A stretch of DNA of 64,000 bases, taken from Escherichia phage vB_EcoM-Ro121c4YLVW. The stretch lies in the sequence record NC_052654.1. One strand, written 5' to 3'. Both the position numbers and the translations under genes were made by a program. Under the pieces are notes generated by a model. It worked only from the letters and a program-made list of their open reading frames with translations, was not told the DNA's origin and ran no database searches. Positions 1,757-55,868 of this stretch are shown here, piece after piece; positions within the stretch are counted from its first letter, which is position 1, and the number at the start of each line of letters is the position of its first letter.

Positions 1757-1835
1757 TGGAGGCGGGAATCGGATTTGAACCGATGATCTCCAGCATATGA
1801 AACTGGCGAGGACGACCAGACTCCTCTATCCCGCT
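1757..1835 (-). tRNA. tRNA with anticodon CAU (Met or Ile2/lysidine)
   Basis: Hand fold: T-arm ATCGG-TTCAAAT-CCGAT, anticodon stem CCAGT/GCTGG, loop TTCATAT, CCA encoded; A1-C72 mismatch at acceptor end. Confidence 0.6.
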
Positions 1836-1913: not shown

Positions 1914-1987
1914 TGGTTGTTTCGACAAGAATCGAACTTGTGTCTCACGATTATCAGTCGTGGGTTCTACCATTGAACTACGAAACA
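1914..1987 (-). tRNA. tRNA-Ile (anticodon GAU)
   Basis: Hand fold: acceptor TGTTTCG/CGAAACA, D-arm GTTC..GAAC, anticodon stem CACGA/TCGTG, loop CTGATAA, T-loop TTCGATT, CCA encoded. Confidence 0.7.
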
Positions 1988-3694: not shown

Positions 3695-3769
3695 TGGTGG
3701 CCCTGGCTGGTTTCGATCCAGCTACCTATCGGTTATGAGCCGACAGCTCTCCCATTGAGCTACAGGGCC
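3695..3769 (-). tRNA. tRNA with anticodon CAU (Met elongator or Ile2)
   Basis: Hand fold: acceptor GGCCCTG/CAGGGCC, D-arm GCTC-AATGGGAGA-GC, anticodon loop CTCATAA, T-arm GCTGG-ATCGAAA-CCAGC, CCA encoded. Confidence 0.65.
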
Positions 3770-13261: not shown

Positions 13262-13317
13262 TGTTGTAAGCCGCCCTTTACGGGCGGTAATGTGAGATGT
13301 ATTAAATAGGAGGAAAC

Positions 13318-14196
13318 ATGTTTGTAAAATCTTTTAAATCCGCTCTGCCTATGGTTGTTGGTGACAATGCTTCTGTAGCATCCCTTAACAGCATTACAGA
13401 TATTCCTCTGGAATTTGTAACAGCAGAAGGCTCCCAGTCACACACTATCGGTCTTGTTCGTTTCGAAGATGACTCTAAATTTGTAAAAGAGTTTTCAGAT
13501 CTTGAACTGCTTAATGTAGGTCAATCTGTGAAGAAGGTAGATAAAAAGAAAGTTAAACGTATTCTGAATGAACGTCTAGAAGAAATGCGTCAGGACATGG
13601 AGAGCGAAGGTAAAGAGTTTTATGTCGATAAAGAAGTAGTCAAAGCAATGAAGGAAGATATTGAATTTGCACTATTGCCTGAAACAGAACCTGAAGATTT
13701 CTTTAACTATGTTGTCTTGGATAAAACTACGAATCTTCTTTATGTTCTTAATGGAAGTAAAAAGGTTGCAGAAGAGATTACTTCTTTCCTCCGTTCCGTT
13801 CTGGGGACTTTCCCTTCGGTAGGTTTTAGTGTGCACGAAGAAGCTATTGTAAAAGGTTTTGGTGAATTGCTGGAGAATCACGAAGCAGATCGTATTACTC
13901 TCGGAAATTATATCAAAATGGAGGATAGCGAGGGCGTTGTTGTTTGGAGTAAAGAATCCCTATACGAGTCTAAAGCTGTCGAACTAAAAGAAGATGGTAA
14001 AGATGTTGTTGCAATCGGTCTTGAATATGACGGTGTTGTAGATTTCGTAGTGGATAAAGAGTTTAAACTTTCTAAACTACGTTTTCCGAAATATTTTGCA
14101 GACGAAGAAGGCAGTATTGAAGCTTCAGTCCTTCTGTGCTTCAATGAGATTCGAGGTCTGATGGAAGATTTAACCAAAGCAACAATCCTTAAATAA
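13318..14196 (+). CDS. rdgC: RdgC-like recombination-associated protein
   Basis: Length about 290 aa and internal block VVLDKTTNLLYVLNGSKKVAEEITSFLRSVLG resembling E. coli RdgC (recalled, not aligned). Confidence 0.45.
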   Translation: MFVKSFKSALPMVVGDNASVASLNSITDIPLEFVTAEGSQSHTIGLVRFEDDSKFVKEFSDLELLNVGQSVKKVDKKKVKRILNERLEEMRQDMESEGKEFYVDKEVVKAMKEDIEFALLPETEPEDFFNYVVLDKTTNLLYVLNGSKKVAEEITSFLRSVLGTFPSVGFSVHEEAIVKGFGELLENHEADRITLGNYIKMEDSEGVVVWSKESLYESKAVELKEDGKDVVAIGLEYDGVVDFVVDKEFKLSKLRFPKYFADEEGSIEASVLLCFNEIRGLMEDLTKATILK

Positions 14197-14200
14197 GTTC

Positions 14201-14229
14201 TTGACTTGCGGGATTAGTTATGATATTAT
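14201..14229 (+). promoter_or_regulatory. sigma70-like promoter TTGACT-N17-TATTAT
   Basis: Direct reading; followed immediately by hairpin 14230-14258. Confidence 0.5.
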
Positions 14230-14258
14230 GCCTACCTACTTAATGAGGTAGGCTTTTT
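14230..14258 (+). terminator. hairpin CCTACCT..AGGTAGG + TTTTT (terminator/attenuator in 5' leader)
   Basis: 7-bp inverted repeat followed by T-run, then SD of next gene. Confidence 0.4.
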
Positions 14259-14268
14259 AGGAGGCGTT

Positions 14269-14478
14269 ATGAAAAAGATTCTGACAGTCGTTCTTTTAGC
14301 TTTTAGTTTCACAGTAGCAGCAGGTCAAATTACTTTAATCTTGTCTGATTCTGAAGTTAATGGCAATACAAAATATTGCTACTATTCTAACGCTAACCAA
14401 GATGAAGTTATAGCAATCCCGAAAAGTCGTCAATGTCCGTATACTAAAACATTCTCAACAGAGGATGACGATGAATAA
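14269..14478 (+). CDS. small secreted protein (signal peptide)
   Basis: ORF track; N-terminal MKKILTVVLLAFSFTVAAGQ. Confidence 0.5.
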   Translation: MKKILTVVLLAFSFTVAAGQITLILSDSEVNGNTKYCYYSNANQDEVIAIPKSRQCPYTKTFSTEDDDE

Positions 14479-14490
14479 TTAGGGGGAAAT

Positions 14491-15609
14491 ATTAGCGGTT
14501 ATATTTTAATTAAACCTGAAGATCTTCATTTATATGTCAACGAAGAAACAATAGCTGCAATTGATTATGATCAGATCGCTTTCCAAGCAGCGTCTGCATT
14601 AGAGAAAAGAACAATCATTGCGAAGCACATCCCTTCAGGTGCTCAAAAGGAATTTAAAAATAAGACAGAGTTTTGGGGTAAAAGCAAGACTAAAATTGGA
14701 GGTTGGCTAGGAGATACAAATGCAGAAAGAGCCTCCAAAAACAAACGTCCCTTCACAAAGGAAGAGTTCGAAATCATTGATAAGCAATACCCGCCAGAAG
14801 ATATCGGACACACCTTCCAAGCAGCTAAAACAAAAGTCTTAGGTATTCTAAAACATCTACGTTTAGAAAAATATTGCGGAGTTATTGGCGTAGGAAAAAC
14901 TTTCAGACACGCCTTCAAAATGCCTGTAGAATATAAGTCTGAACGATTAGATATCAAACCACTTCAGCTTTCAGAAACCAAAGATTATCTTGTGGAGTTC
15001 CACAATGGTGATGTTGTTACTGTAATAGAGGCTGATGATGAGTTAGAGAAGTATGGTTTCCAAGGTTATAAAGATTATAAAAGGACGGGTAAATTTTCTT
15101 ATATCGTAGTGTCTATAGATAAAGATAGTTTACATACTCCTAGTATCCTTTTTAATTTCTACAAAGAGGATGGAGTATTTAAAAATCCAGATATAATTCT
15201 TATTGACGAGTCTATTGGCGATATATGGATCGTAGATAAAGGTAAAAAGAAAGAAGTTAAAGGTTGGGGCAGTTACTGGTTAGCATATCAGATGCTAATG
15301 GGAGATAAAACAGATAGTATCCGACCTTATCAAGATTTTGATATTAAGTTCGGAGATATTACTTGTTTTAATCTTCTTTCAGCTTGTAAAACTCAAGCAG
15401 AACTTTTCCAAACAGTTAAAGATACTTACTACTCATGGTTCCCAGATGGTGTTAATTTTACTTCTTGGGATGGAGAAGAAGTCCATATGACAACAGATGA
15501 ATGGATAGAAACAATTTTCCAGTTGGTATACATGAAACGCTGGGATAATGACGATACAACATTTGAGAGTATGCTTCAGTCATACATCTCGCAACAGGAG
15601 GCAGAGTGA
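14491..15609 (+). CDS. rnh: RNase H / 5'-3' exonuclease (T4 rnh, FEN family), apparently starting at a non-AUG (ATT) codon
   Basis: 147 sense codons upstream of the first ATG (14920); upstream part IAAIDYDQIAFQAA resembles T4 RNase H ICLIDFSQIALSTA; H3TH-like LMGDKTDSIRPY; SD AGGGGG 4 nt before ATT 14491. Confidence 0.6.
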   Translation: MSGYILIKPEDLHLYVNEETIAAIDYDQIAFQAASALEKRTIIAKHIPSGAQKEFKNKTEFWGKSKTKIGGWLGDTNAERASKNKRPFTKEEFEIIDKQYPPEDIGHTFQAAKTKVLGILKHLRLEKYCGVIGVGKTFRHAFKMPVEYKSERLDIKPLQLSETKDYLVEFHNGDVVTVIEADDELEKYGFQGYKDYKRTGKFSYIVVSIDKDSLHTPSILFNFYKEDGVFKNPDIILIDESIGDIWIVDKGKKKEVKGWGSYWLAYQMLMGDKTDSIRPYQDFDIKFGDITCFNLLSACKTQAELFQTVKDTYYSWFPDGVNFTSWDGEEVHMTTDEWIETIFQLVYMKRWDNDDTTFESMLQSYISQQEAE

Positions 15610-16565
15610 GCAGATTAACAGAAGAGCAGAAAGCAGATATCCTTAGTATGAGTGCAGAGGGTATGTCTTCTCGAAATATTGCAGCAATTGTTTTAGGTAG
15701 CCCAACAAGAAAAAGCACAGTAAATGATTTCCTTGCACGTTTCAGTGGAAGTAAACAAGAACCCGTTAAAAAGAAACAACCAGTTATTAAAATTATTGAT
15801 GTTGAAACTGCACCAGAGATTGCATATACTTTCCGTCGATTCAAAGCCTTCATTTCTCCAGACCAGGTGATTCGCAGAGGTTATTTGTTATCCTACTCTT
15901 CTGCTGACCTGTATACTGGTGAAGTGGAAGGTAAGAACTTGTCTTCTTATCCTCTTTTCGATATTGATCATACAGATGATTGGGAGCTTTGCCAAGATCT
16001 TTGGAACCTTCTGAATGAGGCAGATGTAGTTGTGGCACACAACGGATATAAGTTTGACCGTGCATACATTAACCAACGATTTGCATATCACGATATGGCT
16101 CCTCCTTCTAATTATGTAGTCGTTGATACATTGAAGGCAGCTAAGAAACAATTTGCACTTCCTTCCAACTCCCTTAAAGAAATGGGAGCATATTTCGAAA
16201 CAGAAAGTGAAAAACTGGATAACGAGGGGTTCCCTTTATGGAAAGCATGTTGTGAAGGTGATCGTGATGCTTTTGAACGTATGCAGATTTACAATGATGG
16301 CGATGTTGTTTCACTCCGTGATTTGTATATGAAAATCCTTCCGTGGATTCCACAGCATCCTAACTTATCCGCTTATTACCCAGATGAGAAAGTCCGTTGT
16401 TCTCGTTGCGGCAGTGATCATGTTCACGTTGTTACTGGTAAGCAATACCACACTGCGGTAAGTTCTTTCGATATCATTCGTTGTGAATCTTGTGGAGGTT
16501 TGTCACGTAGTAGAGCAAACACCAGATCCAAAGATAAACGAGCAGCAACTATTATTGGAATCTAA
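15606..16565 (+). CDS. DEDD-family (DnaQ-like) 3'-5' exonuclease with C-terminal zinc finger
   Basis: Motifs IIDVETAPE (exo I) and VVAHNGYKFDRAY (exo II/III); C-terminal CSRCG...CESCGG. Confidence 0.55.
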   Translation: MSRLTEEQKADILSMSAEGMSSRNIAAIVLGSPTRKSTVNDFLARFSGSKQEPVKKKQPVIKIIDVETAPEIAYTFRRFKAFISPDQVIRRGYLLSYSSADLYTGEVEGKNLSSYPLFDIDHTDDWELCQDLWNLLNEADVVVAHNGYKFDRAYINQRFAYHDMAPPSNYVVVDTLKAAKKQFALPSNSLKEMGAYFETESEKLDNEGFPLWKACCEGDRDAFERMQIYNDGDVVSLRDLYMKILPWIPQHPNLSAYYPDEKVRCSRCGSDHVHVVTGKQYHTAVSSFDIIRCESCGGLSRSRANTRSKDKRAATIIGI

Positions 16566-16570
16566 TAATC

Positions 16571-16594
16571 AGGGAGCTTATTGCTCCCTTTTTT
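16571..16594 (+). terminator. intrinsic terminator GGGAGC-ttatt-GCTCCC + TTTTTT
   Basis: Direct reading downstream of exonuclease gene. Confidence 0.6.
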
Positions 16595-16623
16595 ATTGAC
16601 AAAAATTTGATATTAGTGTATAC
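16595..16623 (+). promoter_or_regulatory. sigma70-like promoter TTGACA-N17-TATACT
   Basis: Direct reading. Confidence 0.55.
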
Positions 16624-27099: not shown

Positions 27100-27935
27100 C
27101 ATATCTGGTATTGGGCGGTAATGGACAACTGGGACAAGCTTTACGTAAAGTGGCTCCTTCAAATGTATCTTTAATTTATCCTAAAGAACGTGTAGATATT
27201 ACAAATTTTGAAGCTGTGCGAAACGCTATTGTTGAAGATTATGTAGATGGTGTTATTAATTGCGCTGCTTATACGGCTGTAGATAAAGCAGAACATGATT
27301 TTGCTACTGCTTTGGCTGTTAATTCCTACGGCCCTGCAAACATTGCAGCAGTGTGCAGTAAACTTAAAATTGATTTTGTGCATATTTCTACAGACTATAT
27401 TTTTAATTACTCTCATCCTATTTTTGAAGATACTACACCTAACCCAATAAACAATTATGGGTATACGAAAGAACTTGGTGAAAAAATGGTGCGAGGAGTT
27501 AACCCAAATGCATATATTATTCGAACAGCCTCGGTATATAGCGAATTTGGAAATAACTTTCTAAAAACCATGTTGTCTCGCTATAATGATGGACAACGTG
27601 ATTTTATTATTGTTGCTGATCAGTTCTCTTGTCCAACATATGCTCCAGATTTAGCAGAAGCTATTTTTGAAGTATTAAAAACAGGTTGGTCAAGGTCTGT
27701 TAAGACTTACCATTTTGCAGGAAGCCATCTTATTTCTTGGGCGGAGTTTGCGGAAAAGATCTTGACACAGATGCCAGAACCTGTTAAGATATCGGCGGTA
27801 TCAGCTTCAACCTATAATGCTCCAGCAGCACGTCCGGTGAAGTCACAATTAGTAACCAGTCACTATCTTACAAAATCAGATTTAAATAAAGGTATTGAAC
27901 GGTCTTTAGCAGTATTACTTAATAAGGAGAGGTAA
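27093..27935 (+). CDS. rmlD: dTDP-4-dehydrorhamnose reductase
   Basis: Rossmann LVLGGNGQLG; completes the B-A-C-D operon. Confidence 0.75.
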   Translation: MLTYLVLGGNGQLGQALRKVAPSNVSLIYPKERVDITNFEAVRNAIVEDYVDGVINCAAYTAVDKAEHDFATALAVNSYGPANIAAVCSKLKIDFVHISTDYIFNYSHPIFEDTTPNPINNYGYTKELGEKMVRGVNPNAYIIRTASVYSEFGNNFLKTMLSRYNDGQRDFIIVADQFSCPTYAPDLAEAIFEVLKTGWSRSVKTYHFAGSHLISWAEFAEKILTQMPEPVKISAVSASTYNAPAARPVKSQLVTSHYLTKSDLNKGIERSLAVLLNKER

Positions 27936-53057: not shown

Positions 53058-53279
53058 CTACTCCGCAAGAACCTTCACTTCGTCAGAGAAGAATACGTAA
53101 TCACAACCTTCCCAAACATCTTCTTCAAACCACTCCCATCCCTCGACTTTGGACATTTCTTCTATCGTAACAAAGAATGTTGTCATATCCTCACTAACAA
53201 GATGTGCTTCAACAACAAAAGGAATCTGAACATTCTCAAAACCAACATAACCCAATACATCACAAACTCTAATTTTCAT
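53058..53279 (-). CDS. paralogous family B member (MKIR..., W-x-W-F-E-E, DYVFF)
   Basis: ORF track; similar to 56571..56792. Confidence 0.45.
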   Translation of the reverse strand: MKIRVCDVLGYVGFENVQIPFVVEAHLVSEDMTTFFVTIEEMSKVEGWEWFEEDVWEGCDYVFFSDEVKVLAE

Positions 53280-53280
53280 A

Positions 53281-53481
53281 TTATGCTCCTTTGTAGATTA
53301 TGTTGGTGCGTTCACACTCTGCCACCAGCAAGCGATTAGCAATGTTGTCCATAGGAACATCAATCTCTACGCTCCAAGCGTTGATATACACTTCTTCAAT
53401 CTTTGCTCCAAGCATTTGTGCGATCAGAGCAACAGCGCCAGCATACTCAAGTTTAATCTCAATTACCATTTTGCACCTCAA
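53281..53481 (-). CDS. hypothetical protein
   Basis: ORF track. Confidence 0.4.
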   Translation of the reverse strand: MRCKMVIEIKLEYAGAVALIAQMLGAKIEEVYINAWSVEIDVPMDNIANRLLVAECERTNIIYKGA

Positions 53482-53483
53482 GG

Positions 53484-53720
53484 TTATTTGTCTTGCTTGT
53501 ATCTTACAAGGCGATCACACTCCAGGTCAAGAAATTTCTCCGCATTTCGTTCATGTTTGAGCACAATACATTGTTCTTTCCAGTCTGTAGCTCTTTGCTG
53601 CGCTGCTCCTGGGTCAAAATCCCAAAGCCATGCCGCGAAAAGAACAACCATAACAATTACCAAGAAACTAAACACTATTGGCATTGCACATCCTCCTGTG
53701 TAGCATGATCTTTTACCCAT
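53484..53720 (-). CDS. small membrane protein
   Basis: ORF track; TM helix. Confidence 0.4.
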   Translation of the reverse strand: MGKRSCYTGGCAMPIVFSFLVIVMVVLFAAWLWDFDPGAAQQRATDWKEQCIVLKHERNAEKFLDLECDRLVRYKQDK

Positions 53721-54959: not shown

Positions 54960-55397
54960 TTACAGCAGATCTAATGCTTTCAACTCTTCTTTCAATGATT
55001 CAGGCAGGTCACATTCAATGTCAATCAGAGATAACAAGTGACCAACAATGCCTTCCAGATGTTGATACTCACTATAACTTATAAATTCAGAATTGTAAAC
55101 AGAAACATCCTTAGTTTCTTTCACAACTTCCCCCGCAGACACGCACATAAAAAAGTTACGCTCTCCGCGAGCTAACAATATCTCCCAACTTCTGAACGGA
55201 TACTGTCCAGCTTCAATAATATCTCCGCTGTCCAATAAGGTCAATGAGCAAACAGACCCTGATTCACTAACATCTTCGACGCGGAAACAAGACCCTTCAA
55301 TCAAAGCTGCCATTTTGAAATTTTCATCAGAGATCATAGAGAAAGCTTCACATGCAGCTTTGCTTTTGAAACAGTAAACAGCATTAATTTTAAACAT
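54960..55397 (-). CDS. hypothetical protein
   Basis: ORF track. Confidence 0.45.
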   Translation of the reverse strand: MFKINAVYCFKSKAACEAFSMISDENFKMAALIEGSCFRVEDVSESGSVCSLTLLDSGDIIEAGQYPFRSWEILLARGERNFFMCVSAGEVVKETKDVSVYNSEFISYSEYQHLEGIVGHLLSLIDIECDLPESLKEELKALDLL

Positions 55398-55409
55398 AAC
55401 ATTCTCCTT

Positions 55410-55868
55410 TTAAACAAAAGATACGCCGATGGTAGCAACAACCAAACGTTTATAAACTTCAACCTCTTCTGTAGGATTAGCCATTTTATGCTCCGCTGCT
55501 TCTTTCAAAGCTTCTTCATAATTTTGAGATCCAGAAATACAGGTGTCACCAGTCATTACAACATACCACTCTTCTTTTGTTGTATCAACAGGTTCTTCTT
55601 GGGGTTTTCCACGACCACCACGAACACCACCGTCAACAAAATAATCTATATGAGCAGAATTGATTATGTAACGATCCCCATCACCAGCAGTGATAATACC
55701 ATCTCTCATACCTATTACAACCATTGACAAGATATTACCATTTGCATCAGTGCTCAACACCTCGAAAAAATTCTCTCCAATGATAGCCGCAATACTGTTA
55801 TCAAAGGTAGAATATAGTCGCATATAATCCTCATCCTGGAAACGGTAGACATGACCTTCTTTAAACAT
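55410..55868 (-). CDS. hypothetical protein
   Basis: ORF track. Confidence 0.45.
   Translation of the reverse strand: MFKEGHVYRFQDEDYMRLYSTFDNSIAAIIGENFFEVLSTDANGNILSMVVIGMRDGIITAGDGDRYIINSAHIDYFVDGGVRGGRGKPQEEPVDTTKEEWYVVMTGDTCISGSQNYEEALKEAAEHKMANPTEEVEVYKRLVVATIGVSFV

Follow-up and report, generated by a model that had tools for sequence, protein, structure and literature searches.

A FEN-family exonuclease gene with a proposed AUU start codon in phAPEC8-like coliphages

In Escherichia coli, initiation factor 3 (IF3) discriminates against AUU, AUC and AUA as start codons. These codons initiate at approximately 1-2% of the level of AUG, and only two E. coli genes, infC (encoding IF3) and pcnB (encoding poly(A) polymerase I), are confirmed to start with AUU (bioRxiv 10.1101/063800). 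In reporters, AUU gave an expression 6-8 times below that of AUG, and a coupled junction of the infC type gave twice the single-cistron AUU value and 4 times less than AUG (PMC3592434). Here, we analysed a stretch of 64,000 nucleotides of Escherichia phage vB_EcoM-Ro121c4YLVW (NC_052654.1), which we call the window. We propose, with a probability of about 0.85 and on the basis of sequence comparisons, that its gene at 14491-15609 encodes a 372-residue 5'-3' exonuclease of the FEN family and that translation of this gene starts at the AUU at position 14491.

The phage gene resembles infC and pcnB in having an AUU start behind a Shine-Dalgarno (SD) sequence, and it resembles infC in starting near the stop codon of the preceding gene. 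For pcnB, weak translation is presumed to limit a protein whose excess would be harmful or superfluous, and we presume the same for the phage exonuclease. In contrast, the autoregulatory logic of IF3 is a feature of infC, and there is no sign of it in the phage gene. The phage start also alternates between AUU, AUC and AUA (collectively AUH, or ATH in DNA) across a viral clade, whereas homologues of pcnB were reported to start with AUG, GUG or UUG (bioRxiv 10.1101/063800). The phage gene is a clade-wide addition to the known phenomenon of AUU starts, practical for annotation and of moderate interest for translation biology.

The reading frame upstream of Met144

The window comes from a phAPEC8-like coliphage (Phapecoctavirus, Stephanstirmvirinae); all eight of the inspected records are classified in Phapecoctavirus, and 63 phage records match positions 13300-16600 with 98.7-99.6% identity. 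The features of the exonuclease gene are as follows.

14481-14486, plus strand: Shine-Dalgarno sequence AGGGGG, forming a duplex of -9.3 kcal/mol with the 3' end of 16S rRNA
14491-14493, plus strand: proposed initiation codon ATT, the AUU being predicted to be read by fMet-tRNA; in register with the codons at the homologous site in relatives
14491-15609, plus strand: proposed full-length coding sequence (CDS) of the FEN-family 5'-3' exonuclease, 372 codons plus TGA
14563-14571, plus strand: codons of Asp25-Tyr26-Asp27, the first acidic cluster of catalytic type, untranslated in most annotations
14920-14922, plus strand: ATG (Met144), the start chosen by most gene callers and records, which gives a truncated product of 229 amino acids

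The TAA at 14476-14478 closes a 69-codon open reading frame (ORF, 14269-14478), and the ATG at 14920 shares its frame, as found by direct reading and with a script. The original prediction, made from the letters alone, had described this frame as open from the ATG back to the TAA over 147 sense codons, and the script returned the same count. None of these 147 codons (14479-14919) is ATG, GTG, TTG or CTG. The near-cognate codons among them are ATT at 14491, 14503 and 14509, ATA at 14551 and others further downstream. The ATT at 14491 is the earliest of them past the TAA; it follows the AGGGGG after a spacer, AAAT, at 14487-14490. The window has 71 stop-to-stop ORFs of 120 codons or more, and the exonuclease ORF is an extreme outlier among them: it begins with 147 start-less codons, whereas the median is 6. 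As ATG, GTG and TTG make up 5.35% of the codons in the window, the probability of 143 codons without any of them is 4e-4. The next three start-less ORFs, with 75, 55 and 48 leading codons, are antisense shadows of minus-strand genes, and the start-less ORFs at 53251-53703, 55263-55727 and 27171-27560 were rejected as candidates, being antisense shadows.

The region upstream of Met144 is shown to be coding by several lines of evidence. A tblastn search matched 1231 phage records, 899 of them with a query coverage of at least 80%, and hundreds of phages have the upstream region in conserved form, with identities as low as 26-37%. The sampled matches (rV5, PAK_P5 and ICP1) begin at residues 1-7, and not only past Met144. 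In comparison with phages alia and phiWec181, nucleotide differences in the N-terminal part are distributed over the three codon positions as 42/29/83 and 34/18/67, respectively. As these differences fall mainly at third positions, the upstream part is under purifying selection at the protein level. Residues 2-9 (SGYILIKP) are kept through synonymous changes, including a change of Ser AGC to TCA in locus L024. The N-terminal 147 codons alone match PHROG 107 (E 5e-7).

In an alignment of 50 homologous sequences, no variation is seen at D25, F55 and R139, and at least 90% of the sequences have D27; all four residues precede Met144. In the structure model, D25 and D27 close the first beta-strand (residues 16-25), which is followed by a helix (residues 26-37). 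The N-terminal 143 residues are thus coding and needed for the fold and the active site, which bears out the earlier claim that this region must be translated.

The initiation site in relatives and the alternative starts

The spacer of 4 nt between the SD sequence and the ATT is the modal SD-to-start spacing of the genes in the window, which ranges from 3 to 7 nt, so the SD sequence stands at a functional distance, as it does in AUU genes of the infC and pcnB type. In order to compare the site, the 5' ends of homologues were drawn from annotated phages, IMG/VR, Logan/ENA contigs and metagenomes. Nineteen distinct contexts came from relatives that share 53% identity or more, all with a codon in register with ATT 14491: ATC in 10, ATT in 6 and ATA in 3, and ATG, GTG or TTG in none of the 19. 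An SD sequence similar to (T)AGGAGG, with a predicted duplex energy of -7 to -11.5 kcal/mol, lies 3-5 nt before the ATH in these relatives. Most of them have no canonical start codon anywhere upstream of the catalytic Asp, and the window gene has no canonical in-frame start before its essential conserved residues either. In four loci (L017, L088, L089 and L091), an in-frame TAA abuts the ATC (GGAGGAGTAA-ATC, GGAGGATTAA-ATC); therefore, upstream starts are impossible there. The near-cognate codon is thus conserved in relatives in which upstream alternatives are excluded. No start other than ATT 14491 behind AGGGGG is credible, in agreement with the original prediction, which had singled out this ATT as the only candidate with an SD sequence. 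A related genome with ATG at the equivalent position, named in that prediction as a sign of a sequencing error, is found only among the more distant relatives.

Beyond the 53% range, the homologous site is occupied by TTG in rV5, Ro1 and L077 (the latter again with a TAA directly before it), by GTG in Mydovirus and ICP1, and by ATG in Seunavirus-like contigs, PAK_P5, K8, 11895-B1 and Barba. The idea that weak starts are a property of the whole family therefore holds only in part, as the Vequintavirinae have mostly TTG or GTG and the ATG-bearing lineages have a canonical start. Taken together, the sequences point to an old, fixed initiation site, the codon of which appears to have become AUH in the Stephanstirmvirinae-like clade and then to have drifted among the three near-cognate codons.

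According to the mechanism that we propose, the strong AGGGGG would set the P site of the 30S subunit over the AUU 4 nt downstream, and the initiator fMet-tRNA would pair with AUU despite the mismatch at the third position. The product would begin Met-Ser-Gly-Tyr-Ile-Leu, with (M)SGYILIKPEDLHLYVNEETIAAIDYDQIAFQAASALEK or SGYILIK as the N-terminal peptide. Ribosomes terminating at the TAA 12 nt upstream, next to the SD sequence, would probably add some re-initiation. The AUU codon would act as a built-in throttle, keeping the nuclease scarce relative to its operon neighbours. As ATG is avoided throughout the clade, we infer that the low yield is a selected trait. The most economical reading would be a weak start of the infC/pcnB type that limits how much of a DNA nuclease is made. 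Throughout a viral clade, this one gene has retained an AUH start, and the one-step mutation to AUG has never been taken; this persistence is a natural-history argument for weak initiation being selected, presumably in order to limit a DNA nuclease. The arrangement (SD sequence, 4 nt, AUH, 12 nt past a stop) also offers a compact natural system for near-cognate initiation, IF3 discrimination and coupling.

Several points weigh against an AUH start at 14491. The distant relatives PAK_P5, K8 and Barba manage with ATG. A conserved internal isoleucine would show the same ATH invariance, so that the case for the start depends on there being no upstream start and on the four loci in which a stop adjoins the codon. 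The lineages L074 and L075 (53-57% identity) have an ATG 9-10 codons downstream that might be used in its place. Finally, there is no significant local RNA structure around the start (z -1.26), and no structural enhancer was found there.

With regard to L074 (an ENA ERZ1524533 contig) and L075/L076 (Logan), an SD sequence, 4-5 nt and ATT or ATA are kept, and the downstream ATG is without an SD sequence. These lineages may be intermediates in the evolution of the start codon.

Among the alternatives, the best survivor is initiation at the same AUU mainly or only by termination and re-initiation after the TAA at 14476, with de novo binding of the 30S subunit contributing little. In the window, in alia and in L017, 8-12 nt separate the upstream stop from the start, and the SD sequence overlaps or directly follows that stop; the doubled expression of the coupled infC-type junction in reporters (PMC3592434) fits such a scheme. 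Nevertheless, the SD sequence is strong, optimally spaced and sufficient for de novo initiation. In addition, the Vequintavirinae relatives have a different gene upstream (e.g. an HNH endonuclease), so the coupling to the 69-codon gene is not ancestral. A main or exclusive role of re-initiation is thus possible but rather doubtful. It would in any case be a variant of AUU initiation at 14491 and compatible with it, and coupling is likely a contributor rather than an alternative.

Much less probable is a start at another near-cognate codon, such as ATT 14503 or ATT 14509, which encode the isoleucines of Tyr-Ile-Leu-Ile and are likewise conserved as ATH in relatives. These codons lie 16 and 22 nt past the SD sequence, far beyond the spacing range of the genome, and the residues that would then be left out (Ser-Gly-Tyr or Gly-Tyr, within residues 2-4) are conserved as protein through synonymous changes.

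We consider it even more improbable that ATG 14920 is the true start and that a functional 229-residue product follows an untranslated remnant of 440 nt. This codon is the choice of most gene finders, the 229-residue form occurs on more than 385 contigs, and approximately 50 of the 60 Phapecoctavirus records listed leave 14500-14700 unannotated. However, the purifying selection on the upstream part and its conservation in hundreds of phages are difficult to reconcile with a remnant, and both the first cluster of catalytic acidic residues and a number of strands in the core of the FEN fold would be missing from the 229-residue product. The ATG is not preceded by an SD sequence (TTCAGACACGCCTTCAAA ATG), and in close relatives with other downstream codons, gene callers pick scattered, non-homologous starts.

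A fusion with the 69-residue protein, by readthrough of TAA 14476 or by a hop from GAA 14473 to GAA 14518 similar to that of T4 gene 60, has a negligible probability. Both ORFs are in one frame in the window, the upstream gene ends with GAT GAA and a stop, and several lineages have a GAA within the conserved KPEDL motif. In addition, one metagenome gene call gave a 444-residue "fusion" protein, P0005, but this is an artefact: the DNA has a plain TAG, which the caller translated as Gln. Readthrough, which the original prediction had kept as an alternative, is contradicted by alia and phiWec181, in which the frame of the upstream gene differs, and by L017, L088, L089 and L091, in which two in-frame stops (TAG..TAA) separate the genes. 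As for a hop, the upstream gene ends with GAT TAA in L018-L025 and L024, in which a matching landing codon is absent, and the codons to be skipped are conserved as protein. We thus found neither an in-frame upstream ORF with a single leaky stop conserved among relatives, as expected for readthrough, nor the conserved matched codons flanking a non-coding gap that characterise translational bypassing of the T4 gene 60 type. P0005 corresponds to L011 1501-2835 (Logan contig SRR30397360_28145), and it seems that the start-less ORF misled its caller's choice of genetic code.

A sequencing or assembly error, which had also been considered initially, or a decaying pseudogene that has lost its ATG has only the missing ATG in its favour and can be dismissed: 63 independently sequenced genomes carry the identical arrangement, which excludes an error, IMG/VR and metagenome contigs show it as well, and in every lineage at 53-100% identity the full-length ORF has remained intact and is under purifying selection.

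Relationship of the protein to the FEN family

The FEN, or 5'-3' exonuclease, family (PF02739 / PF01367 in Pfam) includes the T5 D15 5'-exonuclease (flap endonuclease), E. coli ExoIX (Xni), Mycobacterium smegmatis FenA and T4 RNase H. A search with the whole ORF returned PHROG 107, "exonuclease" (E 1e-55). No Pfam or NCBIfam match was obtained for the window protein, and no relevant PDB chain was matched in HMMER sequence searches with the protein or with a profile of 50 sequences. Among the 50 homologues, 15 match PF02739 (5_3_exonuc_N) with E values of 1e-5 to 1e-6, at 24-28 bits, which is below the gathering cutoff of 34.3. With a bona fide T4-type RNase H, hhalign gave a weak alignment (probability 17%), in which the catalytic motifs YK.NR, EADD and S.D.D are matched.

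As the sequence searches and hhalign gave little, the family assignment was taken from the predicted fold. The predicted structure has a PIN-like alpha/beta core with FEN topology; EXO1, FEN1, XPG and GEN1 are also among the structural matches of the model, ranked later, and Foldseek is in agreement. The carboxylates for two metal sites and the arch Tyr/Lys/Arg residues are conserved: D25, E180, D182, D183, D210, D212, D272, D275, Y148 and K149 are invariant in the 50 homologues, and R152 is conserved in at least 90%. The assignment of the metal sites was made by motif alignment with T4 RNase H and from established knowledge rather than by superposition. The window protein belongs to a divergent FEN subfamily, with its membership resting on the fold.

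Compared with the bacterial and phage FEN matches (239-317 residues), the window protein is approximately 70-130 residues longer and exhibits an inserted region with a beta-hairpin and a helix (approximately residues 38-100) after the first strand and helix, which the FEN matches do not have. Its sequence identity to T5 D15, ExoIX, FenA and T4 RNase H is only 12-20%, and it shows no specific affinity to T4 RNase H over the other FENs. The original prediction had called the gene an rnh homologue. This description is correct at the superfamily level and not as a specific kinship with T4 RNase H, and the N-terminal block of T4 RNase H that it had cited lies outside the weak hhalign alignment.

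Homologous exonucleases of the same family, phrog_107, occur in rV5-like Vequintavirinae (rV5, Mydovirus and Seunavirus-like phages), together with ICP1 gp176 and PAK_P5 gp058. The Vequintavirinae homologues are 37-47% identical to the window exonuclease. In rV5-like phages, ICP1 and PAK_P5, these genes also lie beside replication and recombination genes and also start after an SD sequence and a short spacer.

Existing annotation, phage tRNAs and operon context

Phage ESCO13 (KX552041.2 / NC_047770.1) is annotated with a CDS that begins at the equivalent of ATT 14491 and with a ribosome binding site, and the 372-residue protein is public as AQM50955.1 / YP_009786567.1. Among the 60 listed records, an exonuclease CDS spans 14500-14700 in no others than ESCO13 and its RefSeq copy, and five have a "hypothetical protein" in this interval. 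Approximately 95% of the public Phapecoctavirus records cut the gene to 229 residues. Most metagenome gene calls truncate the nuclease as well, which leaves a fragment without the first catalytic aspartates and a "gap" of 440 nt, and genome annotations made for phage therapy inherit the error. We found no discussion of the exonuclease gene in the literature on ATT/AUU starts in phages or in the papers on phAPEC8 and ESCO13, and the ESCO13 genome announcement does not mention it either.

In several records, the "gap" is filled by a 40-residue out-of-frame ORF (phAPEC8_00121, EcG1_049) or by other hypothetical proteins. The gap-filling ORFs at 14720-14842 (plus strand) and 14643-14957 (minus strand) are contained in the coding region of the exonuclease and are in all likelihood spurious.

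The phage encodes ten tRNAs, including one that could be considered in connection with initiation.

1757-1835, minus strand: initiator-like tRNA(CAU), whose best E. coli match is tRNA-fMet, with 74% identity

This tRNA resembles tRNA-fMet in its G2-G6 acceptor, its mismatch at 1:72 (A1.C72), its A11:U24 pair and its T arm, which is identical. In the anticodon stem, CCAGU/GCUGG, two of the three consecutive G:C pairs of the initiator type are lacking; the D loop is longer and the discriminator is U. IF3 and the P site inspect these three anticodon-stem G:C pairs in initiator tRNA. The tRNA is at least 92% conserved across the Stephanstirmvirinae, the clade with the ATH start. A link between this tRNA and AUH initiation is speculative, and it is very unlikely that the ATH start is part of a phage-specific initiation programme acting through this tRNA or through changes in IF3 stringency induced by infection. 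If this were the case, the exonuclease would begin to be made at a particular point of the infection, with start-codon stringency serving as a viral timer. The tRNA-Ile(GAU) at 1914-1987 (minus strand) was rejected as a special initiator, as it is an ordinary elongator. A second tRNA(CAU), at 3695-3769 (minus strand), resembles E. coli ileX and appears to be of the tRNA-Ile2 type (lysidine type, reading AUA).

The exonuclease gene is the second of a three-gene unit, which extends from a promoter-like site through the 69-residue gene, the exonuclease and a polymerase exonuclease subunit to a terminator.

14201-14229, plus strand: predicted promoter-like site TTGACT-17 nt-TATTAT (TG-extended), 10 of 12 matches in a consensus scan
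14230-14258, plus strand: terminator-like hairpin GCCTACCT...AGGTAGGC plus T5 (hairpin at 14230-14253), abutting the -10 element of the promoter
14269-14478, plus strand: 69-codon gene, phrog_4641, of unknown function, with a signal-peptide-like N-terminus; its TAA is 12 nt before the ATT
15606-16565, plus strand: DNA polymerase exonuclease subunit, phrog_403, whose GTG start codon shares bases with the stop of the exonuclease (GTGA)
16571-16589, plus strand: terminator-like hairpin closing the unit, also annotated in phage ASO2A

At the junction with the polymerase exonuclease subunit (15596-15609), an AGGAGG lies 4 nt before the GTG at 15606, and translation of this subunit may be partly coupled to that of the weakly translated exonuclease. 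The hairpin at 14230-14258, which is annotated as a rho-independent terminator in ASO2A, probably ends the upstream RdgC transcript. Transcripts from the promoter-like site would begin inside the 5' arm of this hairpin and would thus escape the RdgC terminator.

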